From Armatimonadota bacterium (GTDB taxonomy: Bacteria; Vulcanimicrobiota; JACPDS01; JBDRKI01), in NCBI GenBank assembly GCA_043814095.1, contig JBDRKI010000123.1, positions 1 to 30,858 on the forward strand: 30,858 bases of DNA, written 5' to 3'. The position numbers and the translations under genes were made by a program. The notes beneath the pieces are model-generated. The model worked only from the letters and a program-made list of their open reading frames with translations, was not told the DNA's origin and searched no databases. This document shows, in pieces, positions 9,743 through 30,785 of this stretch (position 1 is the stretch's first letter; each line of letters opens with the position of its first letter).

Positions 9743-9749
9743 TGTTCCT

Positions 9750-11952: not shown

Positions 11953-11970
11953 GTGAGGCTACTCTTAAAA
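11800..11970 (+). ncRNA. Predicted TnpB omegaRNA/reRNA (scaffold to 11952, guide from 11953); outer limits approximate
   Basis: Characterised TnpB reRNAs overlap the tnpB 3' end and right end. Hairpins at 11908-11923 and 11923-11942. GTGA (11890-11893) can pair with terminal TCAC. Confidence 0.7.
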
Positions 11971-12100
11971 ACACAGGCCATTGCCCGGAAATGTCGAGAG
12001 ACGCCAATGGGTAGAAAAGACCAGATCGAATTAAGGTTTGGTATAACATGGCTAGCTGAGAAGCTTACGTTTGAGAAAGCCAAAGCTCAACAAGGAGATT
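11953..12100 (+). ncRNA. M-box (ykoK) Mg2+ riboswitch aptamer, main 3' part
   Basis: GTGAGGCT...TGCCCGGAAATGTCGAGAGACGCCAATGGGT...ATCGAATTAAGG...GCCAAAGCTC matches the conserved M-box blocks in order, upstream of Mg-transport-type genes. Confidence 0.92.
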
Positions 12101-12132
12101 TTGGATAGTTTTGACTATACATAAATCTTATT

Positions 12133-12161: not shown

Positions 12162-12181
12162 ATTAATATCGGGATTTGGTT

Positions 12182-13673: not shown

Positions 13674-14954
13674 ATGAATATAAATGATTTAAGAAAGCAA
13701 GCTGAATCGGAAAAAGTTTATTATCTCAGCGAGATTATAAACAGGAAAGTTGTCCTGAATAATAAAAAAACAGGCAGGCTTCTCGATATTGTCATTATTG
13801 AAACGGGAAAAGTCCCGGAAGCCACATTTTTTCTCGTTGGGCGTCCCTTCGGGCAGGCTTCGTTAATGGTGCCGTGGGAGAAGGTTAAAGAGATAAGTAA
13901 TAAAGAGATTGTCATTGATATAGAATCCCAGGAAAAGTATGAAGGCGACCCCAAGGAGGAGCAGGTATTATTAAGGGACCATATTCTTGATAAAAAGGTT
14001 CTGGATTTTGAAGATAATGAAGTGGAAGTGGTATATGACATAAAGCTGGTTCTGCGCAATAACAAACTTTACGTGACCGACGTGGATTTCAGCAGGTACG
14101 GCTTATTAAGAAGGATAGGATTAAAAGGCGTAGCCAATTTTATTTATAATTTAGCCGAGAAAATAAAAGAAGAGACAATATCATGGACATATATCCAGCC
14201 CCTTCCCGAGCAGTTAAGCAGTTTCAAGGGTAATGTACGGTTAAAGGTATTAAAAGAAAAGCTTCCCGAGATACACCCCGTGGATTTAGCTGATATGCTT
14301 GAAGAGTTAGAGCCCGAACAGCGCTTAAGCATTTTTAACGAGCTGGAGAGCGAGCAGGCATCGGATACCTTAGAAGAGATCGAGCCCCGCGTCCAGCGCG
14401 ACCTTATAGCTTCAATTAAAAAAGAAAGAGCGGCCGAGCTTATTAATCTTATGACTCCCGCCCAGGCGGCTGACGTTCTGGTGGAACTTCCCGGGACAGA
14501 AGCCGATGAGATACTTGAGCTTATTGATAAAGAAAATGCAGATAAGATACAGCCCATTATGGATAAACATGACGAGAAAATTCTGAATTTTTCCACTCCT
14601 GATTTTATAAAATTCAATAAGTATGCCACGGTAAGACAGGTATTAGACCGCTTCCGCATGGCCGCGAAAGATAAAGACGTTATAATGTATATTTATGTAC
14701 TGGATGATGAAAATAAGCTGGTGGGCGTTGTTGATATAAGGGAGCTTCTGCAGGCGCGTTTAGAAGACCGTCTCGAGAATATAATGACAGAACATGTAAT
14801 AAGTTTAGAACCGGACAGCAAGCTTTCTGAAGCATCGCATATGTTTAACAGGTACAGTTTCCGCGCAATACCTATTGTAGATGAAGCTGATAAAATATTA
14901 GGTATTGTTATGTACCGCGATATTATGAATTTAAAACACAGGTTTTTGGAATAA
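13674..14954 (+). CDS. Soluble PRC-barrel-like + MgtE N-terminal + CBS-pair protein
   Basis: IHPVDLADMLEEL and AADVL (MgtE_N). YIYVLDDENKLVGVV and AIPIVDEADKILGIV (CBS). No transmembrane domain. Confidence 0.88.
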   Translation: MNINDLRKQAESEKVYYLSEIINRKVVLNNKKTGRLLDIVIIETGKVPEATFFLVGRPFGQASLMVPWEKVKEISNKEIVIDIESQEKYEGDPKEEQVLLRDHILDKKVLDFEDNEVEVVYDIKLVLRNNKLYVTDVDFSRYGLLRRIGLKGVANFIYNLAEKIKEETISWTYIQPLPEQLSSFKGNVRLKVLKEKLPEIHPVDLADMLEELEPEQRLSIFNELESEQASDTLEEIEPRVQRDLIASIKKERAAELINLMTPAQAADVLVELPGTEADEILELIDKENADKIQPIMDKHDEKILNFSTPDFIKFNKYATVRQVLDRFRMAAKDKDVIMYIYVLDDENKLVGVVDIRELLQARLEDRLENIMTEHVISLEPDSKLSEASHMFNRYSFRAIPIVDEADKILGIVMYRDIMNLKHRFLE

Positions 14955-16913: not shown

Positions 16914-18089
16914 ATGTATCCAAGAAAGCTTTGTCTCTTATTGAAAAAACATATAAGTAAAAAGCAGATTAGTGTAATTACCGGTATGAGGCGTACCGGC
17001 AAAACAACCATTCTTAAACAGCTTCTTTCAGATATTCCATCGGAAAACAAAATATATATAGATTTAGAACGTATTGATAACAGGGAGCTTTTTTCAGAAA
17101 AAAACTATGATGCTGTCATTTATACCCTGCGCCAGCGCGGGTTGGATATAAAGAAGAAGGCATATATAGCTCTTGATGAGATACAGCTTATGCATAATTT
17201 ACCGAGCGTGCTCAAATATCTATATGATAATTATGATATTAAGTTTTTAGTAACTGGTTCAAGTTCTTATTATCTTAAGAATCTTTTTACGGAATCCCTT
17301 GCGGGAAGAAAAAAGATTTTTGAACTTTATTCTCTTGATTTCGGCGAGTTTCTTACTTTTAAAGAAGTGTCTTATGTAAGTGAAAATTTTTTAGACAAAA
17401 AATTTAACCCTTACGAGTACGAACGTTTAAAAAAATATTATGAGGAGTATATCGAATACGGCGGGTTCCCTGAGGTTGTTCTTTCGGATGCTCCGGAAGA
17501 CAAAAAAGACCTGCTTCTGGATATTATAAATTCATATATTGATATAGATGTTAAAACACTTGCTGATTTCCGTAATCAAGATAACCTGTACAAGCTTATA
17601 AAAATGCTTGCAGGAAGGTCATGCACCCGACTTGATTACAGTAAATTGTCAAAACTGGTCGGTATATCCCGCCCCACAGTACATACTTATGTGGATTTTT
17701 TTGAAAAAACATATTTAATTTCAAGATTATCCGTACTAGCAAATAATCCCGACAGGGAGATAGTCAAGGCCCAGAAAATATATTTTTGCGATAACGGAAT
17801 AATGAATGTGCTATTTGATACATCAAGCGGAGTTAAATTTGAAAATGCAATATTTACCCAGCTGTATCAGCGCGGGAGTCTATCTTATTACTCGCTTAAA
17901 ACCGGAAGGGAGATAGATTTTATACTAAATAAAGACATGGCATTGGAAGCAAAAGAATCCCCCATATCTTCAGATCTGGAATCTTTAAATAAAATATCAT
18001 CCCAGGCAGGCGTGAAAAATTTCAGACTTATAGGGCGCCGCCAGGTGCCAAATTTTGATAATTACATCTGGGGTGGTGAGATAAATTAA
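16914..18089 (+). CDS. AAA_14/DUF4143-type ATP-binding protein
   Basis: GMRRTGKT, LDEIQ, TGSS, SLAGR, YGGFPE, KIYFCDNG, FEN, EIDFI...ALEAK. Confidence 0.9.
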   Translation: MYPRKLCLLLKKHISKKQISVITGMRRTGKTTILKQLLSDIPSENKIYIDLERIDNRELFSEKNYDAVIYTLRQRGLDIKKKAYIALDEIQLMHNLPSVLKYLYDNYDIKFLVTGSSSYYLKNLFTESLAGRKKIFELYSLDFGEFLTFKEVSYVSENFLDKKFNPYEYERLKKYYEEYIEYGGFPEVVLSDAPEDKKDLLLDIINSYIDIDVKTLADFRNQDNLYKLIKMLAGRSCTRLDYSKLSKLVGISRPTVHTYVDFFEKTYLISRLSVLANNPDREIVKAQKIYFCDNGIMNVLFDTSSGVKFENAIFTQLYQRGSLSYYSLKTGREIDFILNKDMALEAKESPISSDLESLNKISSQAGVKNFRLIGRRQVPNFDNYIWGGEIN

Positions 18090-18111
18090 CTAATTTTGAT
18101 ATATTCATATT

Positions 18112-18645
18112 TTAACTTTTACTTATTTCCCATCTGCCGTCTGTAGAATTATAGTAAGTTTTCTCAAGATAGGAATTTATCTCGCGGCATGTAATTATTT
18201 TTTCACGGTCTTTGCCGAAAAGATTATTAAATAAATACGGATGGCTATCGGGATGTTTTTCAAATTTCTTATACCATTTAAGATATTCTGTTTTAAACTT
18301 GGAGAATGTTTCTATTTCTTTATTTTTAATAATATGGTATCCTTTTTTAACTTTAGCGGTATTCACAGGGTTTTTTCCGTTAAATAGCCTGGTTAAAGTT
18401 TTCAATCCTTCTTCTTCAGAAGCTATATTCATGATAATTTCAGCATTTATAAGTTTTTTATGAGCGGCTTCCGCTTTGGCTGCCAGCTTTTTAATATTTG
18501 CCGGGAAGAAATCAGATTCTCTTATCTTTCCGGTAATATATTTGACCGGATTGGCTTTTAATTGCCGCGGATAGCGCCGCATGGTATGAAAACAATCCAA
18601 TCCATTCAGTTCATTTTTAGCTGTAACCATTTTTGATATATTCAT
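18112..18645 (-). CDS. Hypothetical basic protein, last gene of array B
   Basis: 177 aa, GAGGTG SD overlapping the upstream stop; no recognised motif. Confidence 0.7.
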   Translation of the reverse strand: MNISKMVTAKNELNGLDCFHTMRRYPRQLKANPVKYITGKIRESDFFPANIKKLAAKAEAAHKKLINAEIIMNIASEEEGLKTLTRLFNGKNPVNTAKVKKGYHIIKNKEIETFSKFKTEYLKWYKKFEKHPDSHPYLFNNLFGKDREKIITCREINSYLEKTYYNSTDGRWEISKS

Positions 18646-18648
18646 ATT

Positions 18649-19116
18649 TCACCTCTTATACATATGATATTTGACTGTTAATAGATCCCATGCATCGCTT
18701 AAGGTTGCTTTAATATAAGCTTTATCAGCTGTAGATTTTTTGGTTTTATCAACTGCATCATGCTCGGCTTTATAAATGTAATTCTGGCACCTTGCTCTTT
18801 CAAGACCTGTTGCTTTATGAGTAAAATAGTTACCCGAGGTATCTTTTTTTTCTACTTCTATCCGGTTTTCTCTGTAGAAAAACCTATATTTTAATTTTTC
18901 CAAAGGATCAGCTACTGTAATTTTAAGGGGCACACCATCTTTGTAAAATATTTTAACAGTAATAGGTTTATCATCATTTTTAAGTTTAATAGTGCAGGGA
19001 CCTTCCATTTTTTTATAATTAGAATTCTTCTGCTGGAGTAAATAAATTTCTCTGGTGGTGCCGGGTGTGATCTTTGGTTCTGTTTTTCGTGTGCTTGAAT
19101 AATTTGGTGTAGACAT
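18649..19116 (-). CDS. Hypothetical protein, paralog family B (divergent)
   Basis: AAGGAG SD; IFYKDGVPLKI resembles IFYNKGAVYKI of the 144-aa gene. Confidence 0.72.
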   Translation of the reverse strand: MSTPNYSSTRKTEPKITPGTTREIYLLQQKNSNYKKMEGPCTIKLKNDDKPITVKIFYKDGVPLKITVADPLEKLKYRFFYRENRIEVEKKDTSGNYFTHKATGLERARCQNYIYKAEHDAVDKTKKSTADKAYIKATLSDAWDLLTVKYHMYKR

Positions 19117-19132
19117 AATATAAACTCCTTAA

Positions 19133-19555
19133 TTATTCTTTAGTTTTTATTTTTTCTATATCTCTTATGGCTTTATTTAATTGTGATGCAAGATTTTCCG
19201 GATATTTTTTAGGATGATCATTTATTTCTTTAGCGGTTTCTTTAAGCTGATATAAGAAGACCAGTTTGCTGTCATTATTCATCGGTTTGCGGTTTACGGG
19301 ATTGTCCTGCCATCCGCCTGTTTCTGTTTCCAGCTCTTTGCCTTTGGGGAAATTGGGGTAATATTTGTATTTAAAGATTTCATAATTTGCTATCCCGTTA
19401 AAAAGGATAATTTTGAAAACCTTATTGTTTCTTAAGTAAATTGTAGTCTCGTCTAGGGTCATGGGGGTTTTCTTCAGCATGATGGTTATTTTTTTGAATT
19501 CATTTTGCCTTTTGGCTGTAACCGGATTAACGCCTGTAATTATGTTTGTATTCAT
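19133..19555 (-). CDS. Hypothetical protein, paralog family B
   Basis: AAGGAG SD; IYLRNNKVFKII, YKY, KPM, KYPENLASQL. Confidence 0.78.
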   Translation of the reverse strand: MNTNIITGVNPVTAKRQNEFKKITIMLKKTPMTLDETTIYLRNNKVFKIILFNGIANYEIFKYKYYPNFPKGKELETETGGWQDNPVNRKPMNNDSKLVFLYQLKETAKEINDHPKKYPENLASQLNKAIRDIEKIKTKE

Positions 19556-19986
19556 AATATCTCCTTTTCTCCCGTTTCTATTTTAGATAATATTTTTTCC
19601 AGGTGCTGTGCGAGATTTTTCGGATATTTTCTCCAGTCGCCTTTAACAAGTTTTATAGTGTCCTGGAGATTTTCTGTAAAAGTTACTACCTCATGTCTCT
19701 CCATGGGTCTGTATTCCGAAGTAAGTGCACCTTCCGTGCTCTTTGTTCCGTATTCTAAAGAATCATTTTTAATATTGTATCTGTATAAGTTATAACCGAA
19801 TCCAGCTAAGCTGCCTGTTTTTTCCATTTCAAACTCAGTCATAATAATTTTATAAACCGCGCCTTTATTATAAAAAATCAAGGCATTGAAAACTCCTCCC
19901 AGGTCAATAGTTAATTTTCCTGAAAAAGACTGCACCTTGGTACTGGCACTTGCCAGCATTTTCGGGTTAATAAGATTGGCTTTCAT
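19552..19986 (-). CDS. Hypothetical protein, paralog family B
   Basis: GGAGG SD; IFYNKGAVYKII, YRY, RPM, KYPKNLAQHL. Confidence 0.78.
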   Translation of the reverse strand: MKANLINPKMLASASTKVQSFSGKLTIDLGGVFNALIFYNKGAVYKIIMTEFEMEKTGSLAGFGYNLYRYNIKNDSLEYGTKSTEGALTSEYRPMERHEVVTFTENLQDTIKLVKGDWRKYPKNLAQHLEKILSKIETGEKEIL

Positions 19987-19995
19987 TCTTCCTCC

Positions 19996-20403
19996 TTATT
20001 TATCTATTTTTTCCATTGTTTCTTTTAAAGTATCCATAATTAATTCATTTTTCTTGTCTGCCAGGTAGTGTTTTTCAATGGCTATTATTGTTTTTCCAAG
20101 CTGGTTTATAAAATATTCTTTATCCTTTGGTTTTATGTATCTTGCTTTTGTCCGTGTTTTACCCCCATCAAGCTTGTATTCTATCCATTCAATTTCAATC
20201 TTATTATTCTGCGGGGAGTATCTGTATATCATTATGCCTGCGGTTACCTTATTTATATACGCTATTTTCTGCAGTTTATTAGCATTAAAACATACTTTAA
20301 CTTCTTCTTTTGAGAATTCTGTTGTTTCCAGCACAAACCGTCTTATCCATTCGCTTTTTTGCGGTTGTGTTTGTGCTATAAACTTTGTTTCTGTAATATT
20401 CAT
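19996..20403 (-). CDS. Hypothetical protein, paralog family B, first gene of array
   Basis: AAGGA SD; VCFNANKLQKI, IYRY, FINQLGKT. Confidence 0.75.
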   Translation of the reverse strand: MNITETKFIAQTQPQKSEWIRRFVLETTEFSKEEVKVCFNANKLQKIAYINKVTAGIMIYRYSPQNNKIEIEWIEYKLDGGKTRTKARYIKPKDKEYFINQLGKTIIAIEKHYLADKKNELIMDTLKETMEKIDK

Positions 20404-20437
20404 AAGATTTCCTTATATAATTAATAATTACCGTATA

Positions 20438-20494
20438 ATTATATACCCTCAAACCCATATAAATCAAGGAAATTATGTTAACAAAATGTTAACA
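20438..20494 (-). promoter_or_regulatory. Promoter with tandem TGTTAACA boxes
   Basis: TGTTAACA at 20476-20483 and 20487-20494 (11-bp period); minus-strand TATAAT at 20438-20443. Confidence 0.6.
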
Positions 20495-20527
20495 TTTTCC
20501 ACCTTTTAGGGTGATATTAATGGGATT

Positions 20528-21514
20528 TTACCTTAAAAATAGGATAATAATGAAAAGAACATAGGCAGAAAGAAGTATTGCGCCTTCTATTCTTTTAAGG
20601 ATATGGCCTGTTGACATAAATAAGGCAAGGGCCAGTATAAATACAAGCATTATCGGGAGCTCGAATATCAAAACATCGGGGTTTATGGTAATGGGCCTTA
20701 TGAGGGCTGCTATCCCGAGGACGAATAATATATTAAAGATATCACTGCCTATAATGTTTCCAACGCTTATGCTGGGCACTTTTTTCATAACCGCGGTCCA
20801 TGTTATGGCAAGTTCAGGGATTGAAGTTCCTATGGCAAAAAGGGTTAACCCTATTATCCACGGACTTATTTTAAAATATTTTGCTATCTCGACACCTGAG
20901 TTTATCATGATATTTGTCGCAAGAACTACAAAAAGAAGAGCCGCGAAGAATGCCAGAGAAACCACTCTTTTGGAATTTAGCTTTTCAATGAATTTTCTGG
21001 GTTTAAAATCTTTTAATTCTTCTTTGCTCTCCTGCTTATAATAAGGGTCGTTATATGCGAAAACGCAGAATATAATAAAGCAGAGAAGAAACAGAAGCCC
21101 TTCTATCCTGGATATTTCAAGATCCATACAGAATATAAAAAGAACTATTGCGGCGAAAACCACAAGAGGAACTTCGCGCCTGAAAATTTTAGGATCTATT
21201 TTTATGGGCTTTATTAAAGCCGCTATGCCGAGCACAAGCCCTATGTTTGCTATGCTTGAACCGACTATATCTCCAAGGGCGATATCGCCCTGGTTTTCAA
21301 TTGATGCAATAATTCCGACAGCCGCCTCAGGGGCTGAGGTTCCGAATGCTATGAATATGAGGCCTATGAATAAAGGAGAAAGCCTTAAGAGCATGGCCAT
21401 CTTTACCGAGCTGTGTATAAGCCAGTCTGATGCAAGAAACAATAAGTATAAAGCTATCGCGAATATTATAATATTTAATATTAAACTGCCCATATACATT
21501 CTATTATTCCCCAT
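20528..21514 (-). CDS. Calcium/sodium antiporter (CaCA, YrbG-like)
   Basis: Two alpha-repeats, AFGTSAPE...GDIVGSSIANI and AIGTSIPE...GNIIGSDIFNI. The start may be a few codons downstream. Confidence 0.93.
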   Translation of the reverse strand: MGNNRMYMGSLILNIIIFAIALYLLFLASDWLIHSSVKMAMLLRLSPLFIGLIFIAFGTSAPEAAVGIIASIENQGDIALGDIVGSSIANIGLVLGIAALIKPIKIDPKIFRREVPLVVFAAIVLFIFCMDLEISRIEGLLFLLCFIIFCVFAYNDPYYKQESKEELKDFKPRKFIEKLNSKRVVSLAFFAALLFVVLATNIMINSGVEIAKYFKISPWIIGLTLFAIGTSIPELAITWTAVMKKVPSISVGNIIGSDIFNILFVLGIAALIRPITINPDVLIFELPIMLVFILALALFMSTGHILKRIEGAILLSAYVLFIIILFLR

Positions 21515-21645
21515 AATGTTTTAAATATCCTATTGTAGGCAAATTAAATATTTTTAAAGTGTCTTTAAAAGGTAATTTTTTATTTTTATAAAAATATTAT
21601 ATAAAAGCACTGTCAGCATAATCTTCTATAAGAAGCGAGGTAAAG

Positions 21646-23622
21646 ATGAATATTTTTAAGATTAAAAGTATTTTTGTTACGGTTTCTCTTTTTTTGTTCT
21701 GCGTATATATGCTTGCAGGATTATCTTTCCCGGAGAAGCTTAACATTCCAGAAAGTATTGAAATCGCAACGAATAAGAACCTTAACTTCAAATACAGTGA
21801 AGTGAATTATGAGATAAGCAAGTTATATGTTGACCAGGCAAAGCTGGATTTTCATCCCAAATTGGATCTTACGACATACCATAAACAGGATGCTTACCCG
21901 GCTCCCAATAAATCAACTTACCTTTTTCATGTTGTACAGCCTTTTTATTATTCCGGCGCGCTTACCAACCGGCTTAATTCCAAGAAATTCGCGAGCCAGT
22001 CCAGTCTTCTGGGGTTGATACAGGACAGCATAAATCTTGAAAGCGCTGTTTTTGACGCCTATATGAATGTTTTAAGACAGGAAATGCTGGTTGTTGTCGG
22101 TGAGTTTTCGATAAACGGCATTCAGGATGAGATTGATAATATACAAAGTTCTGTTGAAGAAGGCAAAAGAGGCAATGAGGCGGTCTTAAGGCTTAATGTT
22201 CTTTTAAATGATTTTCGGGAAGATCTTGTCGCCGCAAGACAGAGTCTCGTTGATGCCAAAGCCAACTTTAATACAATTTTAAATCTGGATCTTTCTAAAA
22301 ATGTTGACCTTGTTATGTTCGGGGCTGAGTTATTCGAGCTTGATTATATAAGGTACAAACAGCAGAGGAAGAAATATGATACCCAGCAGATACTTGATAT
22401 TTATTATGAATACGCGTTAAAAATGAGCCCGCTTGCCAACCAGAAAGATATAAATATTGCCGCCGCGGAATATGAATTAAGGGCAGAAAGAGGGGACAAG
22501 CAGCCGAAGATAAATTTTTCTCCACAATACGGCACGGATGATACAGGACAGGAAGGCGCCTGGAATGTAGGTTTTAGTTTTACCTATATCTTTCTTGATG
22601 AGAGCGACTGGAAAGACTACCAGATAAAAGAGGAGCAGGTAAAACAGGTAAAGCTTGATAGGGATATTTATCACAGGGATTTAAAATCCGCTATAAGAAC
22701 AAATTATTCTAAAGTGATAGCCCTGGCCGAAAAGGCTTTTATAAACAGGAAACAGGCGTATGATTCGTTTAAATACCTCCAGAAGATAAAAGAAAAATAC
22801 GCCAAAGAACAGGTTACCGATCTGACTATGGTTGACGCATACAGAAGCTTTTATGAAAACCAGATTGCCGATATAAACACCCTTTATGATTATTATATAC
22901 AGCGTGAAAATCTTGAAGCGGTTATAGGGTACTCGGATTTCCGCCAGACCCCGACTTTTGACGAGTTTTTAGAATCTGAAGATAAAAATAAGTTTAAAAT
23001 AAGGGAAGACCTGGGAGCAGGCACGCATATAGACAAAGCGGCTGATGAAAATGATATTGATGAGGTAAGACGCATTCTTGCGGGTGATCCGGAGCTTGTA
23101 AATTCGGTTAATGATGTTGGATGGGCGCCTCTTCACTGGGCAGCGTACAGGGGCTATAATGATATGGTGAAGTTCCTTATAGAAAAAGGGGCGGATGTAA
23201 ACGCACAGACAACCATAGGGCTTACGCCTCTTTACCTGGCTGTTTCGGAGAATCATGAAGAAACCGTAAAGATGCTTATAGGCGCGGGCGCCGATGTTAA
23301 TCTTGCGGTGAGAACAACCGGGTGGACGCCTCTTATGAAAGCCGTTATGGAATCATATACGGATATTGTAAAATTTCTGCTTGCAAGCGGCGCGGAGATA
23401 AACGCTAAATCAATAGCGGGCTGGACGGCTCTTCATGATGCCATAGAAGCAGGTAATTTGCCTCTAGCGAAGATACTCATAGCTCACGGTGCGGATATTG
23501 ATATTGATAATTATGAAGGCAGTTCCGCTTTAGATCTTGCGATAATGGCAGGGAATGAGAAAGCCGTGGAATATCTTGAAAAATATCTTGAAAACAGAAG
23601 CGGAGGCGGAATTGATCAATAA
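21646..23622 (+). CDS. TolC-family outer-membrane efflux protein fused to C-terminal ankyrin repeats
   Basis: Signal peptide and two OEP-like repeats (LNIPESIEIA, PKLDL, QPFYYSG, PKINFS, WNVGFSFTYIF). Then ankyrin repeats GWAPLHWAA, GLTPLYLAV, GWTPLMKAV, GWTALHDAI plus caps. Confidence 0.85.
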   Translation: MNIFKIKSIFVTVSLFLFCVYMLAGLSFPEKLNIPESIEIATNKNLNFKYSEVNYEISKLYVDQAKLDFHPKLDLTTYHKQDAYPAPNKSTYLFHVVQPFYYSGALTNRLNSKKFASQSSLLGLIQDSINLESAVFDAYMNVLRQEMLVVVGEFSINGIQDEIDNIQSSVEEGKRGNEAVLRLNVLLNDFREDLVAARQSLVDAKANFNTILNLDLSKNVDLVMFGAELFELDYIRYKQQRKKYDTQQILDIYYEYALKMSPLANQKDINIAAAEYELRAERGDKQPKINFSPQYGTDDTGQEGAWNVGFSFTYIFLDESDWKDYQIKEEQVKQVKLDRDIYHRDLKSAIRTNYSKVIALAEKAFINRKQAYDSFKYLQKIKEKYAKEQVTDLTMVDAYRSFYENQIADINTLYDYYIQRENLEAVIGYSDFRQTPTFDEFLESEDKNKFKIREDLGAGTHIDKAADENDIDEVRRILAGDPELVNSVNDVGWAPLHWAAYRGYNDMVKFLIEKGADVNAQTTIGLTPLYLAVSENHEETVKMLIGAGADVNLAVRTTGWTPLMKAVMESYTDIVKFLLASGAEINAKSIAGWTALHDAIEAGNLPLAKILIAHGADIDIDNYEGSSALDLAIMAGNEKAVEYLEKYLENRSGGGIDQ

Positions 23623-24673
23623 AAAAACTTGCATTCTCTTCCTGCTCTGTGTTTTTATATCATTAACCGTTCAATCGGCTTTTTCATATGACTACCAGAC
23701 AGAAGTTAACCGCTACTTAACGGTTATAGGTCAAAATGTTAACGAGCTTCCGGACTGGGAAGCTGGTTTTGAAAGAGCCGCAAACAACATTGAAAGCTTT
23801 GAAGAGTGCCTTCACAATATTTCAATGGATATAAACGAAAAAAGGAATACAAACCCAGGTTATACGGTTAAGATCATATTTTATAACCCTGTGGATGAGC
23901 GGTATAAACAGCTGGAAGAAAATTTAAATGAACTTAAGGACTATATGCGGGATCTTAATAATAAATATAATGATCTTAATGAAGCGGATATAAATAATAA
24001 AGAAAGAGTGCTTAATAATACCGCCAAGGCAATGACTAAATGGGCGGAAAAGATAGGCAAGCCCGATATAACCGATCTGGATTTCTCGGAAGAAAAAAAA
24101 GACGCTAAGATACTTGAAGAAGATTTTAATAATATAAACAACATACCGGAAGCCATGGAAAAAATAAAAAAAGAATACGAGCGAGTCAAACCCATAGCGG
24201 AAAGAACCCTGGAGATGCTCAGGAAATTAAAACCCCTAAACAGCCGCATGAAAGAGATTCTTGATAAGTATAAGGATCTGGGCAAACCGCCTAAGCAGTC
24301 AGACCATGTTGTTTTCCTCGGTAGTTTTAAAGGTCAGCGCGCAGAAGGCATGTTCGGTTTTAAGCTTTACAAAGACGGCACGGTTGCCGGCCTATGGGAA
24401 GGGGAGCTCAAGGCAAGCTACGGCTGCGGTCCGGTAAAAGGGACGATTAAAGGCGCATATAACTCAAAGCATAAAACCATAGGCGGCACTCTTTCAGGAT
24501 ACTATTATGTTACATTAAAAGACGGCTCCCAGAAAACTTATAACATAACAGGAGACTGGAACGGGAGAGTTTACGGGAACCTAATCAAGGGCACCTTCAG
24601 GCACAGAAAAGTGCTTAATAAAGGCACCATAGGCCTTGATTCCGGAAAATTTGAAGTGAATCTGGATAAATAA
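23612..24673 (+). CDS. Secreted hypothetical protein, coiled coil + Gly-rich beta domain (paralog 1)
   Basis: TTG 23612 follows GGAGG (23602-23606) and exposes a signal peptide (INKK...VQSAFS). Overlaps the TolC stop. Confidence 0.78.
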   Translation: MINKKTCILFLLCVFISLTVQSAFSYDYQTEVNRYLTVIGQNVNELPDWEAGFERAANNIESFEECLHNISMDINEKRNTNPGYTVKIIFYNPVDERYKQLEENLNELKDYMRDLNNKYNDLNEADINNKERVLNNTAKAMTKWAEKIGKPDITDLDFSEEKKDAKILEEDFNNINNIPEAMEKIKKEYERVKPIAERTLEMLRKLKPLNSRMKEILDKYKDLGKPPKQSDHVVFLGSFKGQRAEGMFGFKLYKDGTVAGLWEGELKASYGCGPVKGTIKGAYNSKHKTIGGTLSGYYYVTLKDGSQKTYNITGDWNGRVYGNLIKGTFRHRKVLNKGTIGLDSGKFEVNLDK

Positions 24674-24702
24674 GATAACCGTATAAATATCAAAGGGGCA
24701 GA

Positions 24703-25749
24703 ATGCTTAAAAAAATAAATCCAGCTTATTTGATCGCCCTTTTATTGTTTTTAATTATCTTTAATTGTAATTATGTTTATGCTTCTGAGCATCAGGATGA
24801 AGCGGATAATTACCTTAATGCAATAAAAGAGAACGTTAATATGCTTTCTAACTGGCAGAAAGGCATATCCGAAGCCTCGGAAAATATTAAAAAACTTGAA
24901 GAATGGCTTATCAATACCGCGGCAAGCATAAAGGAAAAAGTAAAAATTAATATTTCAAATCCCGTGTCTGAAAAAATTAAGGAGCTTGATAAAATAAAAG
25001 CAGAAGCGGAAGAATACATTAAGCAACTGCAGGCAGACTGCCAGAAACTTATAGACTCAAGCGGCGGTAAAGAGAAAGAAACAGTCATCCGTATAAAGGA
25101 AAATATGAACCTGTGGCTTACGCGTATTAAATCCTCGGGTTTAAACGAAATAGATTATAAAAATGATATTGAAAAATTAAAAGAAAAACTGAAAAATACG
25201 GATACACTCCAGGATATGCTCAAAGTTAACAGGTATGAATATAACAGAATAAAGACGCTTAATAAAAAAATACAGGACATGATAGAAAATATGACTCCCT
25301 TAAGCGAGAAGATTGACGGAATTATTCAAAGGTGTAAAACTACGGGCTTGAAAAAAGAAGAGCATAAAAACCTTGAAGCAGTCTCCGGAAAATTTACAGG
25401 CAGCTTTGAAGGCGCTTTTTCATCGGGCAGTTTAAATTTTAATATTTCCGATAAAAATGTTTCTGCCGACTGGGAAGGCGGTTTTTCAACGATGGACGGC
25501 GCCTCTGCCCGCATAAGGGGGAGGTGGACCGGCATCTATGATCCCGAAAGCGGCACGCTCGGCGGCCAGATAATGGGTATGTATTATTATATTTCCGCGT
25601 CTCCCACAAGACCCGTAAATATGCCTATGAATATAGCCGGCACATGGCGGGGAAATGTTTATTATAAAGCGGCGGGTGTATACATAACCGGCGAATGGCT
25701 GAGCCAGCATGGCGACTCCGGCAGGTTTGTGGTGTTCCAGAAGAAGTAG
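24703..25749 (+). CDS. Secreted hypothetical protein, coiled coil + Gly-rich beta domain (paralog 2)
   Basis: Signal peptide ending VYA; aligns by eye with the previous gene along its length. Confidence 0.8.
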   Translation: MLKKINPAYLIALLLFLIIFNCNYVYASEHQDEADNYLNAIKENVNMLSNWQKGISEASENIKKLEEWLINTAASIKEKVKINISNPVSEKIKELDKIKAEAEEYIKQLQADCQKLIDSSGGKEKETVIRIKENMNLWLTRIKSSGLNEIDYKNDIEKLKEKLKNTDTLQDMLKVNRYEYNRIKTLNKKIQDMIENMTPLSEKIDGIIQRCKTTGLKKEEHKNLEAVSGKFTGSFEGAFSSGSLNFNISDKNVSADWEGGFSTMDGASARIRGRWTGIYDPESGTLGGQIMGMYYYISASPTRPVNMPMNIAGTWRGNVYYKAAGVYITGEWLSQHGDSGRFVVFQKK

Positions 25750-25766
25750 GGGCAGGGCATGCCCTG
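25746..25766. repeat. REP-like or terminator palindrome between convergent genes
   Basis: GTAGGGGCAGGGCATGCCCTG; CAGGGCATGCCCTG is a perfect palindrome. Confidence 0.45.
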
Positions 25767-25776
25767 TTTGCGCAGG

Positions 25777-26457
25777 TTATATTTTTTTATAAAAATATAC
25801 AAAGCTTTCTCCCCATGAGAAAGGATAAACTCTCTTATCTGTTTCTTTGAGAAAATCGCAATCCATCTTTATGCTTACAGATATAATTGAAGAGCCTGTT
25901 TTTACTTCCTTGAGTTTGTTTTTAAGTTTTTCCATATTTTCTTCATCCCATGTTGTCGGAGTGAAATAAATTATATCAAATTCTTTTATATCATATCCGG
26001 AGAAATCCCCATTAATAAAATCCGCATTTTCAAGACCCAGTTTCCGCTTTATTTTATTTGCCGTATCTACATACTCGGGTATTAATTCAAATCCGGCGGA
26101 TTTCATTTTAAAATAAAGAGCGGCAAAAAGTACAGTTGCGCCGCGGCCTGAGCCCAGATCGCAGAATGAGAGGCCGGACGTGGGATTTGTTTGGTCCAGA
26201 ATATGTTTTATTGTTATAAATGGAGTTTCGCCGTATATAAGGTTGTCGGGATGAGTTTTTGTCGTTTTTTTGCGCCTGCTTACGATTGTAAATGGCGAAT
26301 CCGAAAAGTAGTAAATCCAGAAATAAAACTTTATTTTCCAGAACCACGGATATATCCCGAACACGGAAACTTCATATAAAAATAAAGAAAGCTGGTTAAA
26401 TAAGCTTTCTAAAATTATGCCGTATATTCCCAACCTGTCTTTTAGCTTCATAAACAA
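25777..26457 (-). CDS. Class I SAM-dependent methyltransferase (DOT1-like motifs)
   Basis: LIYGET, FCDLGSGRG, GFEL, FINGDF, DIIY. Confidence 0.8.
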   Translation of the reverse strand: MFMKLKDRLGIYGIILESLFNQLSLFLYEVSVFGIYPWFWKIKFYFWIYYFSDSPFTIVSRRKKTTKTHPDNLIYGETPFITIKHILDQTNPTSGLSFCDLGSGRGATVLFAALYFKMKSAGFELIPEYVDTANKIKRKLGLENADFINGDFSGYDIKEFDIIYFTPTTWDEENMEKLKNKLKEVKTGSSIISVSIKMDCDFLKETDKRVYPFSWGESFVYFYKKI

Positions 26458-26472
26458 AAACTCTTTTAGAAG

Positions 26473-27246
26473 TTACTTTATTTTCCGGGCAAGTATTATC
26501 AGGCGGGGGGTAATTTCGGTATATTTGCCTCCCGCGAAACTGCCAAAAACTTTTTCTACTTTCAAGCCGTTTCTCCTGAGAATCTCCTTCATTTCTTTTG
26601 ATGTATAAACTCTCAAAACGATATTAAATTTTCTTGTTTTACCGTTAGGAGATATATAAATACGCTCTTCAATATTACGGCTGGTTTTTTTATCGAAGCT
26701 TCTTTTATAGAGTATAAAAGAAGAGTCAGGGAGTCTTGTCCAGTCTTTCTCCCTGTATATTTTCATAAGGTGGCCTTTATTTAGAATGTCAATAATAAAA
26801 AGGCCGCCGGGTTTTAATGCGCAGGATACCTGTTTTATGACTTTTTCATCTTCTCTGTCATTTTCTAAATATCCGAAAGAAGTAAAAAGATTCACGACCG
26901 CGTCAAATTCATTTTTAAACGGGATCTTTCTCATGTCAGATATAATGAAATCTGCATCTGTTTTTTCTTTCTGTGCTTTTTCATTAGCTCTTTTTATAAA
27001 AAAGGCATTAAGATCCTGTCCTGTTACGCTGTATCCTCTTTTTGCAAGTTCCACAGCGTGCCTGCCGTACCCGCAGCAGATATCCAGTATCTTTGATTTT
27101 TTTCTGAACCCGAGAAGCTTGTCTATAAAATCAACTTCCATTTGTGTCTTTTGCCCGGAATTTATAAATACGTATTCATCCATATATATTTTCCCGAAAA
27201 AGCCGGCTTTTTCGGAATACCAGGGTATTTTCATATTGTCCTCCAT
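26473..27246 (-). CDS. Class I SAM-dependent methyltransferase
   Basis: ILDICCGYGRH, VTGQDL, DMR, FDAVVNLFTSFGY, LKPGG. Confidence 0.93.
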   Translation of the reverse strand: MEDNMKIPWYSEKAGFFGKIYMDEYVFINSGQKTQMEVDFIDKLLGFRKKSKILDICCGYGRHAVELAKRGYSVTGQDLNAFFIKRANEKAQKEKTDADFIISDMRKIPFKNEFDAVVNLFTSFGYLENDREDEKVIKQVSCALKPGGLFIIDILNKGHLMKIYREKDWTRLPDSSFILYKRSFDKKTSRNIEERIYISPNGKTRKFNIVLRVYTSKEMKEILRRNGLKVEKVFGSFAGGKYTEITPRLIILARKIK

Positions 27247-27355
27247 AAAAGATACTTCAAAATACCCACCAGCTTTTCCTTTAAAAACAAAGGGAATAAG
27301 TATATGCTGTAGAAAAAATATAGCAATAATCTTAATTCTATCTCGGGAGAAATAT

Positions 27356-28012
27356 ATGTTTGAACATCATTCCAACCTGTTTTTTATAACTGTCTTTTTC
27401 GGCTTTTTTGCCATAATGAATCCGCTTGTCAATATGCCTATATTTATAAGTCTTGTTCAGGATTTTGACGAAAAGAAAAAAAACAGCATTGCCCTGCAAT
27501 CTGTTTTTTATGCATTTATTATTATTGCTGTTTTTTGTTTTACAGGAAAATTTATATTTGACGCTTTCGGGATAACACTCCCCGCCTTCCAGATTACCGG
27601 CGGTATAATTGTTTTTTATATAGGGCTGGAAGTCCTGCAGTCTAAATCTTCCAAAGCGCACTCCCAATCATTACCGGACGGTAGTGACCCGACGGGTATT
27701 GATACCAATCTAGCCGTTACACCGCTGGCCGTGCCTATTCTGGCAGGGCCGGGCACAATATCAACCGCCATGAATTTTTCTGCAAACACGGATTTTTTCA
27801 GGGTTTTAATGGTAATAACTATGTTCGCGGCTGTATGTGTTTTAACATATATCGCCTTCAGGTATGGTGAAAAATTAATGGGTTTTTTGGGGCCGAGGTT
27901 CATAATGGTGCTAGGCCGGCTTATGGGTCTTATTCTTGCCGTTATCGGCACGGAGATGTTCATGCAGGGAGTTAAAGGCGCCATTATAATGAGCGGTCTG
28001 TTTCCTAAATAA
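27356..28012 (+). CDS. MarC family membrane protein
   Basis: FAIMNPL, FGITLPAFQITGG, PLAVPILAGPGTI, RLMGLIL. ATG 27356 with GGAG SD. Confidence 0.93.
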   Translation: MFEHHSNLFFITVFFGFFAIMNPLVNMPIFISLVQDFDEKKKNSIALQSVFYAFIIIAVFCFTGKFIFDAFGITLPAFQITGGIIVFYIGLEVLQSKSSKAHSQSLPDGSDPTGIDTNLAVTPLAVPILAGPGTISTAMNFSANTDFFRVLMVITMFAAVCVLTYIAFRYGEKLMGFLGPRFIMVLGRLMGLILAVIGTEMFMQGVKGAIIMSGLFPK

Positions 28013-28036
28013 TAATTTATCCATAACTTTTATGTA

Positions 28037-28516
28037 TTATAAATTATAATCATCCGCAAAAAGATCAATAAGGGCTTCTTCTTCAGTTGAGTCGTTGTGT
28101 GATACAAGGAATATATTTTCTGCCTGTTGATTTTCGGTTTCCGTAAAATACGCGACAACTTCCGGTTGTTTGGGATTTATAAATTTATCTTTTACAGGAG
28201 TAAAAAAGAAAATAAAGATCCCGAAAATTATTAATATTGCCGCGAACGCGTAAGCCGGTTTTAACCCGAAGAAGGAAAACGAAGGTTTGGATTCTTTTTT
28301 GCTTCTTATTTTAGACATTAATTTTTGGTTGAAAGAAGACGGGAGAGAGTCTTTTATAATTCCCTGTTTTACTGATGAGCTTACTCTTTTTAAAACCTCA
28401 AGCTCTGTCGCGCAGTCAGGACAGGCTTCAATATGTTTTTCTATCTCAGCCCGGTTTGCAATTTCCCTGTCAATGTATTCATTTAACAAGTTTTTTATCT
28501 CATTGCAGTCTTTCAT
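28037..28516 (-). CDS. Zinc-binding anti-sigma factor (zf-HC2) with TM helix
   Basis: C...YID...HIEACPDC motif, one TM segment, coupled to the sigma gene. Confidence 0.9.
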   Translation of the reverse strand: MKDCNEIKNLLNEYIDREIANRAEIEKHIEACPDCATELEVLKRVSSSVKQGIIKDSLPSSFNQKLMSKIRSKKESKPSFSFFGLKPAYAFAAILIIFGIFIFFFTPVKDKFINPKQPEVVAYFTETENQQAENIFLVSHNDSTEEEALIDLFADDYNL

Positions 28517-29064
28517 TCGGCATCACTCCTTACCATATCCTTAAGCTGTAAAGCCAGGTCCTGCCTTGCCCGCCTTATTTTTGTTTTTACGGTATTTATG
28601 TTCTCATTTAATATTTCCGAAATCTGTTCGTACGAAAGTCCTTCCAGTTCCCTTAATATAATGGCTTCTTTGTAGCCGTTCTTAAGGCTTTTAAGGGCAT
28701 TTAAAATTTGCCTGCTTTCTTCCTTTTTTATGTAAATTTCTTCAGAATTTGTTCCTGTTTGTATGAAATTTTCCATCTCCTCCAGAGAAGCCGTAATTGC
28801 TTTTTTCTTTTTTATATAATCCTTGCAAAGGTTTTTCGCTATCTGGTATATGTAAGTTGAGATTTTGCAGTGTCCTTTAAAATTTTTAAGATCTTTATAG
28901 AAACGGTAGAACGCTTCCATTACAATTTCCTGTGCGTCTTCCCTGTTGTATATTATATTAAGAACAAAATTGTAAACCTTATTTTTATGCTCATCCACAA
29001 TCTGCTCGAAATATTCTTCGCGGCCTTCCAGTATATTATTTACCAGTTCCCGTTCGTTAGGCAT
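28513..29064 (-). CDS. ECF RNA polymerase sigma factor (SigW/RpoE-like)
   Basis: DAQEIVMEAF, STYIYQIAKNLCKD, EGLSYEQISEIL...TVKTKIRRAR. Confidence 0.95.
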   Translation of the reverse strand: MPNERELVNNILEGREEYFEQIVDEHKNKVYNFVLNIIYNREDAQEIVMEAFYRFYKDLKNFKGHCKISTYIYQIAKNLCKDYIKKKKAITASLEEMENFIQTGTNSEEIYIKKEESRQILNALKSLKNGYKEAIILRELEGLSYEQISEILNENINTVKTKIRRARQDLALQLKDMVRSDAE

Positions 29065-29089
29065 GTAAAACCTCTTGTGTTTATATGGT

Positions 29090-29117
29090 AAGGGCAGGGC
29101 AAATACACCCTGCCCTT
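29090..29117. repeat. GC-rich hairpin between the Spy-like and sigma genes
   Basis: AAGGGCAGGG (29090-29099) and CCCTGCCCTT (29108-29117). Confidence 0.65.
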
Positions 29118-29125
29118 TGTAATTA

Positions 29126-29689
29126 TTATGACTTACACTCTTTACAGTTTCCGGATTTATCCTGTTTCTGTTTTAATCCCTTCATCTGCTTCTGCATTTC
29201 GTCAAACTTTGCCTTCTGCTGGTCTGTCAGTATGGTTTTTATCTCTTCGTTGATTTTCTTCATGGTTTCAAAGCGGCTGTTTTTATCAGCTTTTGAACAC
29301 ATTTGATCCTGATACTTTTTAATTATCTGCTTAACCTGAACCTGCTGTTCTGTGGTTAAGCTGAGTTTTTTGCCGTACACCGAAGCCATTTTGTCGGCCA
29401 TTTTGTCGGCAATCGTACTTTTGAGCTTTTGCAGCTGTTCGGGAGTAAGAACCTGCTCTATTTTAGTCTTGTATTTTTCCTTGACCTGTTTTACCTCTTT
29501 TTTCTCTTCCTGCAGAAGTGTCTTTATCTGCTGTTTCTGCGCGTCGGTAAGGTCAGGGATAAGGTTGAGCATTCCCTCACACTGCTGTCCTTGTTTCTGC
29601 TTCATTGCCTGCATCTGCGGAGCGGCCATAACCGCCTGGGCTAAAAAAGCCGCTAAAACCAGTAAAATTATGAATGTTTTCTTATGCAT
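29126..29689 (-). CDS. Spy/CpxP-like periplasmic protein with LTXXQ motifs
   Basis: Signal peptide; LTDAQ, LTPEQ, LTTEQ, LTDQQ. Confidence 0.85.
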   Translation of the reverse strand: MHKKTFIILLVLAAFLAQAVMAAPQMQAMKQKQGQQCEGMLNLIPDLTDAQKQQIKTLLQEEKKEVKQVKEKYKTKIEQVLTPEQLQKLKSTIADKMADKMASVYGKKLSLTTEQQVQVKQIIKKYQDQMCSKADKNSRFETMKKINEEIKTILTDQQKAKFDEMQKQMKGLKQKQDKSGNCKECKS

Positions 29690-29721
29690 ATTTGTATCCT
29701 CCTTTCGTCTTTCTACTATGT

Positions 29722-29749
29722 TAGACGATAAATTCTTAAAAAAGTTTCA
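29722..29749 (-). promoter_or_regulatory. ECF (SigW/SigM-like) promoter
   Basis: Minus strand TGAAAC-N16-CGTCTA, upstream of the spy-sigma-anti-sigma operon. Confidence 0.8.
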
Positions 29750-29804
29750 ATTTGGATAACGGATATAATTTATATTTAATAATAATTCTTCCTTTTAAAG
29801 GAAA

Positions 29805-30239
29805 ATGGTTATTTTAATAGAATTTCTAAATATGGTAAAAAACAGTTTAAAAAGTAAAAAAGGCGTAATATTAATTACGGTTTTAATTTTGTTAGTTATA
29901 GTTTTTATTCTCGGCGGAACTTTAATATTATATGCAAACCGCGATCTTTTTACTGCCATGCGGACCGAGAATTCCATGAACGCTCTTTATCTGGCTCAAG
30001 CGGGGTTAATGTACACATCTATAGAGCTTACAAATTTCCGCCTTGACGGCTCCCGTCCCGAACATACGACAGATCCCCCGAAGGAGTTGAGTACGGGTAA
30101 GTTTATAGTTAAGGCCGCGCTTAATAATAATGGTACTGTATCGGTGGAATCCAGAGGCATAAGCGGGAAGGCCGAGAAAGTAATTCACGCGGTATTTTCG
30201 TCGAATAAAAGCGGCAGCAGTTACGACTGGTATTATTAG
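29805..30239 (+). CDS. PilX/GspK-like minor pilin with class III-like N-terminus
   Basis: KSKKG|VILITVLILL followed by ALYLAQAGL and VESRG. The start may be ATG 29832. Confidence 0.75.
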   Translation: MVILIEFLNMVKNSLKSKKGVILITVLILLVIVFILGGTLILYANRDLFTAMRTENSMNALYLAQAGLMYTSIELTNFRLDGSRPEHTTDPPKELSTGKFIVKAALNNNGTVSVESRGISGKAEKVIHAVFSSNKSGSSYDWYY

Positions 30240-30248
30240 AGGAATATT

Positions 30249-30785
30249 ATGAAAAAAAGAAACCGAGGCCATACGCTGGTAGAAGTTATCGTTTCAATGG
30301 TAATTATAACGCTTATGATTGTTCTTGTTGCCCAGCTTTCCGTTAACTCGTGGAGGTATGTAAGGTACGGTTCCGCGCAGTCCGACCAGTTCGCAGGCGC
30401 GCGTACGCTTATGAATAATTTAAGCGAAGCCATAATGGCGTCTAATGAAGTTTATGATACAAGTCCCGATCTTTTAACTGTGAGGCGCACTTATTATATA
30501 GGGGGACCGGAAGTTAAGATAATAAGCTACAAGATGGAGGAGAATAAGCATAAGTTATTTGACATATATAAAATTGAATATCCTCTTGATTATGATCCCA
30601 AAGAGCCTTCTAAGCATATAGCGGTAGGGGGCAGGAAAACGCTTGTGGCTAAGAATGTAAGTGAGTGTACTGTAAAACAGGATCCATCCAATCCGAAACT
30701 CTATAATATAACCATGGAGCTTACTAATCTTGATCCTAAAATACCCAAGTTTAATATAAAAACAAAAGTGCTGAGGAAAAAATAG
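30249..30785 (+). CDS. Prepilin-type N-terminal cleavage/methylation protein
   Basis: KKRNRG|HTLVEVIVSM with Glu at +5. Confidence 0.85.
   Translation: MKKRNRGHTLVEVIVSMVIITLMIVLVAQLSVNSWRYVRYGSAQSDQFAGARTLMNNLSEAIMASNEVYDTSPDLLTVRRTYYIGGPEVKIISYKMEENKHKLFDIYKIEYPLDYDPKEPSKHIAVGGRKTLVAKNVSECTVKQDPSNPKLYNITMELTNLDPKIPKFNIKTKVLRKK

Follow-up and report, generated by a model that had tools for sequence, protein, structure and literature searches.

We identified a gene, here called TolC-Ank, whose product joins a TolC-type outer-membrane factor (OMF) to a C-terminal ankyrin-repeat domain (Ank), and which is a real, conserved and apparently undescribed variant of the TolC family. OMFs are the trimeric exit ducts of efflux pumps and type I secretion and are usually regarded as bare ducts. 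The gene lies on contig JBDRKI010000123.1 of an Armatimonadota bacterium (assembly GCA_043814095.1), a metagenome-assembled genome of 2.50 Mb in 129 contigs, 99% complete and with 39% G+C; the window analysed is the whole contig of 30,858 bases. Sequence comparison confirms that the fusion of the channel part (Pfam family OEP) to Ank is a conserved family with a single origin on the OEP tree, and that its two parts were inherited together. More tentatively, and with a likelihood that we place slightly under even, we propose that each ankyrin domain would dock on the outer wall of its own duct as a YbjP-like accessory domain. The parts of the gene are as follows, with residues numbered along its product.

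21646..23622, forward strand: TolC-Ank gene (P0001), one unbroken open reading frame (ORF) of 658 amino acids, stop TAA at 23620-23622

21646..21729, forward strand: signal-peptide-like N-terminus, residues 1-28, with a hydrophobic stretch at 8-28, judged by eye

21751..22284, forward strand: OEP repeat 1, residues 36-213; strands 72-80 and 89-101, long helix 105-171, helix 177-212

22402..22929, forward strand: OEP repeat 2, residues 253-428; strands 288-296 and 305-313, long helix 319-386, helix 392-427; canonical tip motif Y385..D397-A398 kept

22927..22974, forward strand: family-conserved C-terminal equatorial tail, residues 428-443, with G428, S430, Q434, T435, P436 and F441; mean identity 37%

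22975..23010, forward strand: variable linker, residues 444-455; mean identity 15% over 444-460, and a predicted local distance difference test score (pLDDT) of 66 for the block 451-460

23011..23607, forward strand: ankyrin domain, residues 456-654, comprising N-cap, R1-R4 and R5/C-cap

The earlier note had read this stretch as a single uninterrupted ORF with two OEP-like repeats, a short linker, and four canonical ankyrin repeats between two caps. All of this stands except part of the linker: residues 444-455, or as far as 460, are indeed variable, whereas the rest of what had been taken for linker is the family-conserved tail at 428-443. The start codon ATG at 21646 is preceded by a Shine-Dalgarno-like GAGG. 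Pfam places OEP (PF02321) on the product in two stretches (99.4 bits against a cut-off of 22, E 2.9e-28, the best at 36-213), and both repeats were also recovered by a profile scan of the source genome. Pfam ankyrin families cover residues 465-644, with Ank_2 at 170 bits (E 1.7e-50), and the repeat register runs N-cap 456-488, R1 489-521, R2 522-554, R3 556-588, R4 589-621 and R5/C-cap 622-654, with TPLH-like motifs at 494, 527, 561 and 594, helix pairs in the predicted model, and tryptophan at repeat position 5 in R1, R3 and R4. A similar hydrophobic, signal-like N-terminal stretch was read by eye in 21/21 family rows; in the model, pLDDT falls below 50 at residues 23-28. Among NCBIfam models, the type I secretion family TIGR01844 (type_I_sec_TolC) scored 67.2 bits, below its curated cut-off of 225.15, and the Dot/Icm ankyrin effector families (AnkY, AnkH and others) stayed far below theirs (83 against 600 bits, 75 against 600, and similar), as generic repeat matches. 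The YbjP family DUF3828 had no Pfam match in TolC-Ank.

Structure prediction with AlphaFold2 on a 15-row family alignment gave a mean pLDDT of 89.1 and a predicted template modelling score of 0.83, with four beta strands and long helices arranged as in an OMF protomer. Foldseek aligned the OEP part to CusC, TolC, ST50 and TOprJ1 with template modelling scores (TM, by target) of 0.74-0.78 and to OprM/OprN with 0.65-0.71, and the C-terminal part to designed ankyrin proteins with 0.89-0.91. The earlier note had allowed that the N-terminal part might not form an OEP barrel; on these values it models as a TolC/CusC/OprM-type protomer. By sequence, the best 60 of 436 matches in the PDB were all ankyrin proteins, and the protein atlas returned only plain TolC clusters, with scores of 0.77-0.78. 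The tip motif of repeat 2 is kept across the family (Y385 in 16/19 rows, G388 in 15/19, D397 in 17/19, A398 in 16/19), and because it is retained the OEP part would still be a duct.

With only residues 1-445 as query, HMMER detected 194 proteins at E ≤ 1e-3, and Pfam was run on 25 of the 150 listed matches. OEP and ankyrin families occurred together in 15 of these 25, namely the 14 best full-length cluster representatives (645-703 aa, E 1e-74 to 5e-24) and the N-terminally short P0053, all of them with two OEP repeats followed by C-terminal ankyrin repeats. Two other top matches (217 and 379 aa) are fragments that end within the OEP part, and the best TolC of normal length lacking Ank ranks only at E 1e-21. 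Among 401 genomes of the same phylum, the source genome counted, matches covering both parts were found in 7, belonging to five families. These genomes yielded nine full-length genes and one contig-end piece, two of them holding two full-length genes each; the remaining 39 genomes with a match had Ank-only or plain-TolC proteins.

We built a tree on 410 columns of the OEP part alone for 43 rows: 21 fused proteins, the 16 best-scoring library TolCs of ordinary length lacking Ank, P0037 (described below) and five other OEP proteins of the source genome, with fragments and long multi-domain matches excluded. All 21 fused rows fall on one side of a single branch with a Shimodaira-Hasegawa-like approximate likelihood ratio support of 100, behind a long stem of ~1.08 changes per column. 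Over the same 21 rows, pairwise identities of the OEP and Ank parts are correlated (Mantel r 0.91, a value inflated by near-identical pairs and reached by 0/5000 permutations; Spearman 0.73). The Ank part is better conserved than the OEP part, with mean identities of 37% and 27%. OEP-only matches from genus g19 were considered as clade members lacking Ank and rejected, being ordinary TolCs closest to the plain rows. A profile from a 6-row alignment fell inside an ankyrin repeat, and of the 80 loci kept 78 were Ank-only and 2 full-length; a word-index search with the whole protein gave 36 matches, mostly ankyrin proteins and one (P0037) with OEP and Ank, and the same search with residues 1-445 returned only one weak plain TolC. 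At least one family member is held by NCBI, annotated merely as 'ankyrin repeat domain-containing protein', and JGI calls another 'outer membrane protein TolC'.

The earlier note had considered that the fusion might be an assembly chimera and had pointed to reads across the linker as a check. This doubt, which extends to read-through of two genes, has some footing in the fragmented state of the source assembly, and contigs from other public runs span the gene only piecewise: runs X1 and X2 match it in pieces, and X3 and X4 gave no match to it. An artefact is contradicted by the family: separate assemblies gave 21 sequences of this architecture, they share a single origin on the OEP tree, and the divergence of their OEP parts correlates with that of their Ank parts. 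A 209-base contig from X1, another study's run on an RNA library, is also identical to positions 22829-23037. With 101 letters on one side and 108 on the other, it spans the boundary at which OEP repeat 2 ends (22929/22930), and it extends just 27 bases into the Ank N-cap; independent read support for the fusion is modest. Taken with the family evidence, an artefact seems to us scarcely credible.

Other unusual OMFs were met in the same library. P0037 (841 aa) also combines OEP with Ank, in a second architecture whose N-terminus is lipoprotein-like and which contains long inserts rich in Ser/Thr; it lies outside the fused clade on a long branch of the OEP tree, and a search for its relatives recovered only P0037 itself. 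P0127 (630 aa) carries a C-terminal OmpA domain and P0111 (844 aa) a C-terminal glucoamylase-like domain. Like TolC-Ank, these three have an extra, periplasmic C-terminal domain on an OEP protein; the domains appended to P0127 and P0111 differ from Ank, and P0037 is separated by its position on the tree. Many proteins of ~780 aa (P0062/P0074 and similar) have ~330 extra N-terminal residues before the OEP part, and P0058 (1246 aa) has six OEP stretches in one chain (499 bits), amounting to repeats of three TolC protomers and possibly a single-chain 'trimer'.

According to the accessible part of a review (PMC8277102), the equatorial domain of OMFs encircles the tunnel midway along its length as a belt that includes the variable C-terminal tail, and this tail is implicated in adaptor interactions. 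This agrees with the earlier note in placing TolC C-termini in the periplasm. Because the tail lies in the periplasmic belt, it can be soundly inferred that a TolC-Ank trimer would bear three periplasmic Ank domains outside the tunnel, the display that the earlier note had envisaged.

To see whether the domain is free or docked, residues 29-445 and 455-658 of one protomer were modelled as separate chains in three runs, with three controls. The score was 0.72 (runs 0.73, 0.64 and 0.72), a mark that 116 of 157 solved complexes and 2 of 215 mismatched pairs attained, and the best of the three controls scored 0.25. The three runs share at least 96% of contacts, with partner pLDDT of at least 87. 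Contacts on the Ank side involve repeat positions 1-3, 5 and 13-16 of R1-R5, which form the canonical binding face, and those on the OEP side involve the N-terminal segment 31-35, equatorial helix 223-236, tail 434-444, H3 at 147-157, H7 at 368-375 and H8 at 406 and 409. From helix lengths we estimate that the H3, H7 and H8 sites would sit ~20-30 Å above the periplasmic tip. No like complex is solved among the Foldseek matches or the best 60 of 436 PDB sequence matches. Several contact residues are family-specific: E228 in 16/19 rows (plain TolCs have D in 9/21), G226 in 12/17, Q434 in 15/19 and P436 in 18/19. The binding-face positions of Ank are not conserved apart from the tryptophan at position 5.

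The absence of an adjacent membrane-fusion protein or RND/ABC pump gene, remarked on in the earlier note, was borne out: none of the adaptor, resistance-nodulation-division (RND) and ATP-binding cassette (ABC) families was found at E ≤ 1e-3 in the 17 neighbouring ORFs from 16914 to 30785. The closest ABC-2 pair is 11 kb distant, on the reverse strand at 8963-10568, and has no adaptor gene. Nor is there a nearby adaptor or pump gene at 7 of the 8 other fusion loci; at L042, the fusion gene lies immediately 3' of a TetR-OEP-HlyD-ABC-2 cluster, which is equipped with an OEP already. No conserved neighbours were detected by BLASTP of 11 window proteins against 9 loci or by Pfam over 51 neighbouring ORFs. 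The genes found beside the fusion at the 8 other loci are varied and mostly housekeeping (RecA, trigger factor/ClpP, enolase, HisRS, NIF3, an amylase and others). At two loci the fusion gene overlaps a neighbour by 4 bases: a downstream Metallophos/DUF7800 gene in L042:6136-14627 and, in L045:4845-11565, an upstream alpha-amylase-family gene, behind a PMT_2 glycosyltransferase. The source genome has six OEP genes and five adaptor genes, 4 of the 5 adaptor genes adjoining an OEP gene of their own; the fifth belongs to a HlyD-ABC-ABC-2 operon at a contig end, and among the other OEP genes there is one more orphan. Standing apart from adaptor and pump genes is normal for OMF genes, as with E. coli tolC.

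Two secreted paralogues lie directly downstream of TolC-Ank, followed by a hairpin.

23612..24673, forward strand: gene in the frame of P0002, with a likely start TTG at 23612 behind GGAGG at 23602-23606; the first ATG is at 23555

24703..25749, forward strand: P0003, paralogue of P0002, with a signal peptide, a helical region at 30-213 and eight beta strands at 223-347

25763..25776, forward strand: weak terminator-like hairpin after P0003; no other forward-strand site among the three genes

The likely start of P0002 overlaps the TolC-Ank stop by 11 nt. Both proteins combine a helical half with an eight-stranded beta domain and are 26% identical (E 4e-36). The family has three copies in the source genome, the third at C27:144-1235 on the reverse strand, and matches no Pfam family; the fold of P0003 matched nothing beyond small eight-stranded barrels, and these weakly (lipocalin-like proteins, designed barrels, the OmpA transmembrane domain). 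The P0003 family was not found in 5/5 other fusion-bearing genomes searched with P0003 as query, and on this distribution of sequences the family is lineage-specific. The terminator scan of the window found 7 sites against 4.5 +/- 2.0 in shuffles, and neither it nor the promoter scan rose clearly above shuffled sequence. Since neighbourhoods are not conserved and the downstream paralogues are lineage-specific, TolC-Ank is best described as an orphan OMF with a built-in, putatively periplasmic module.

Secreted stand-alone ankyrin proteins with the same N-cap motif are common in the phylum, ~10 of 14 examined beginning with a signal-peptide-like stretch as read by eye, and are a plausible source of the fused domain. 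At 22 stand-alone Ank loci, no OEP or HlyD gene was found within ~1.5 kb. One such gene, L024:220-870 on the reverse strand, has a lipoprotein-like N-terminus and adjoins PdaC/DUF3298 and Peptidase_M15 (D-Ala-D-Ala dipeptidase-type) genes; judging from this neighbourhood, some periplasmic Ank proteins of the phylum may be linked to the cell wall.

We hypothesize that TolC-Ank would be exported by Sec and then trimerise, with the three Ank domains standing round the tunnel in the periplasm. The equatorial tail, which in solved OMFs ends on the outer side of the periplasmic tunnel, continues through the short variable linker into the six-repeat ankyrin domain, and each domain would rest its usual ligand-binding face against the outer wall of its own protomer, in a contact running from equatorial helix 223-236 down to H3, H7 and H8. 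The Ank domain would then be an accessory subunit joined covalently to the duct, with a counterpart in the lipoprotein YbjP on E. coli TolC; it would brace or position the duct and could restrain helices that move on opening. The duct itself would continue to operate with adaptors and pumps from genes elsewhere in the genome. Because docking puts the Ank binding face on the duct's outer wall, such a built-in brace is favoured over a free cargo receptor. Low conservation on the two sides is more readily explained by intramolecular surfaces that diverge together than by a single conserved external ligand, and is equally compatible with no binding at all.

Several points weigh against this self-docked arrangement. 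Structure predictors are prone to packing tethered domains together, the docking used models of a single protomer with no neighbouring protomers, and its geometry was deduced from contact lists alone. The interface is not extra conserved, with mean entropies of 2.31 at contacts against 2.17 for the rest on the OEP side and 2.25 against 1.80 on the Ank side, a comparison that is not clean because the rest includes the buried core. Normalised mutual information is 0.288 for the listed contact pairs and 0.237 for random OEP-Ank pairs (one-sided p 0.047, not corrected for relatedness), a marginal difference that phylogeny confounds. TolC-Ank has no assignable partner pump, and tip motif 1 is altered, D179 being present in 19/21 plain TolC rows and replaced by A in 10/19 family rows.

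The Ank domains might instead be free tethered receptors that swing on their linkers, capture a periplasmic partner and bring it to the duct; the partner could be an adaptor or a wall-associated protein, or else a cargo exported by Sec, for which the two downstream proteins would be candidates. Protein binding is the usual role of ankyrin repeats, the linker is variable and less confidently modelled, and the many stand-alone homologues with signal-peptide-like starts suggest that periplasmic Ank proteins are common in the lineage. The probable start of P0002 inside the end of the TolC-Ank ORF, with no forward-strand terminator-like site between the three genes, would also fit, and export of Aap by the TolC-like AatA depends on basal residues of that protein's C-terminal elongation, as reported in the accessible part of PMC8277102. 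We regard this reading as possible but on the unlikely side: none of the window's neighbours recurs at the 8 homologous loci, the P0003 family was not found in the other fusion-bearing genomes searched, the binding face, unconserved except for its tryptophan, argues against one conserved external ligand, and in the docking model the duct itself covers that face. For these reasons the earlier note's suggestion that the modules recruit cargo or replace an adaptor was not supported, and a self-docking accessory role appears likelier on the models. In a bolder version, which we consider quite unlikely, Ank would be a latch on the moving helices H7/H8, freed by a periplasmic ligand or adaptor and gating the channel from outside; in this lineage it could also pass Sec-exported proteins, for example the two encoded downstream, on to the duct, which would export them in a second stage.

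A further departure would be that the OEP part is no longer a pump duct and serves as a structural element of the outer membrane, such as a spacer or tether to the wall, with Ank as the periplasmic contact. The long stem of the clade, the sub-threshold TIGR01844 score, the diverged tip motif 1 and the absence of adaptor or pump genes near TolC-Ank and at 7/8 other loci all lean this way, as do library OMFs with C-terminal wall-related domains (P0127 with OmpA) and the contact between the equatorial domain and peptidoglycan proposed in the accessible text of PMC13082787. The complete OMF protomer fold predicted with high confidence, the retained tip motif 2 and the normality of orphan OMF genes speak against it, and overall it strikes us as improbable. 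Peptidoglycan binding is also not known for ankyrin domains. Ank could also be an outer-membrane-anchored inhibitor or immunity module that neutralises periplasmic enzymes, the cell's own or incoming wall hydrolases or toxins, as free periplasmic Ank proteins do. Precedents, as far as the accessible parts of these papers go, are Bd3460, a periplasmic Ank protein with which the cell inhibits endopeptidases of its own (PMC4686830), and the proposed descent of YbjP from a Tai3-like immunity protein (PMC13082787); the stand-alone gene at L024 beside PdaC/DUF3298 and Peptidase_M15 genes would also fit. With no hydrolase or effector gene recurring beside the 9 loci, an unconserved Ank groove, and the fusion of an inhibitor to an OMF left without a rationale, we judge this very improbable.

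TolC-Ank shares with the OMFs TolC, OprM and CusC its two OEP repeats, a protomer of four strands and long antiparallel helices (TM 0.65-0.78), tip motif 2 and, as judged by eye, a signal-peptide-like N-terminus. It differs in ~215 extra C-terminal residues that form the linker and six ankyrin repeats, a distinct long-stem clade, a TIGR01844 score below cut-off and an altered tip motif 1. The closest parallel to the proposed accessory role is YbjP. According to the accessible parts of PMC13082787 and PMC13095208, it attaches to the equatorial domain of TolC in a 3:3 complex, efflux under laboratory conditions does not require it, and a periplasmic binding protein of the immunity type has been proposed as its ancestor. 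Both systems would place a small non-channel module from a periplasmic binding-protein family outside the duct at the equatorial belt, three per trimer. YbjP, however, is a separate DUF3828 lipoprotein located between the equatorial belt and the membrane (same sources), whereas the module of TolC-Ank is a fused ankyrin domain predicted to extend from the belt towards the periplasmic tip; the binding of this domain is modelled rather than solved. TolC-Ank is not a relative of YbjP, and the likeness may lie in the mode of working.

Ankyrin repeats exported to a diderm periplasm are otherwise described for Bd3460 of Bdellovibrio (PMC4686830) and RARP-1 of Rickettsia (10.1101/2022.02.23.481736). 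Both are free proteins in the accessible parts of those sources, Bd3460 acting on external targets, and neither is fused to an outer-membrane channel. AatA, the TolC-like Aap exporter of enteroaggregative E. coli, has a C-terminal elongation at the equatorial domain that matters for protein export; as described in the accessible part of PMC8277102, the elongation is short, with no folded repeat domain, and AatA belongs to a dedicated Aat operon, whereas TolC-Ank has no conserved operon. The earlier note did not recognise the architecture from characterised systems, and in full-text literature searches, judged from titles and abstract openings, we likewise found no published OMF-ankyrin fusion. 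The discovery of YbjP on E. coli TolC (2026) showed that accessory proteins can occupy the equatorial belt. A conserved clade with a module fused to the duct's C-terminus would be a natural experiment, indicating that the tunnel exterior is a functional surface in distant bacteria too, and would offer a single-polypeptide system for probing the effect of an external module on duct stability, position and gating. TolC-Ank also lengthens the short list of bacterial periplasmic ankyrin proteins.

The remainder of the contig is ordinary chromosome. An M-box (magnesium) riboswitch at 11938-12105 on the forward strand (116 bits) lies directly 5' of an Nramp-family transporter gene (12176-13450, forward), which is followed at 13674-14954 (forward) by a gene for an MgtE_N and CBS protein that has no MgtE membrane-domain match. 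The start of the M-box match meets the end of a TnpB-like gene at 10744-11943 (forward; OrfB_IS605 with a Cas12f1-like TNB domain). Five successive small ORFs of 135-177 aa, with no Pfam family, occupy 18112-20403 on the reverse strand, those at 19133-19555 and 19552-19986 being weak paralogues. An extracytoplasmic function sigma factor and a zf-HC2 anti-sigma gene lie at 28037-29064 (reverse), and the gene at 30249-30785 (forward) encodes a prepilin-type N-terminal methylation motif.

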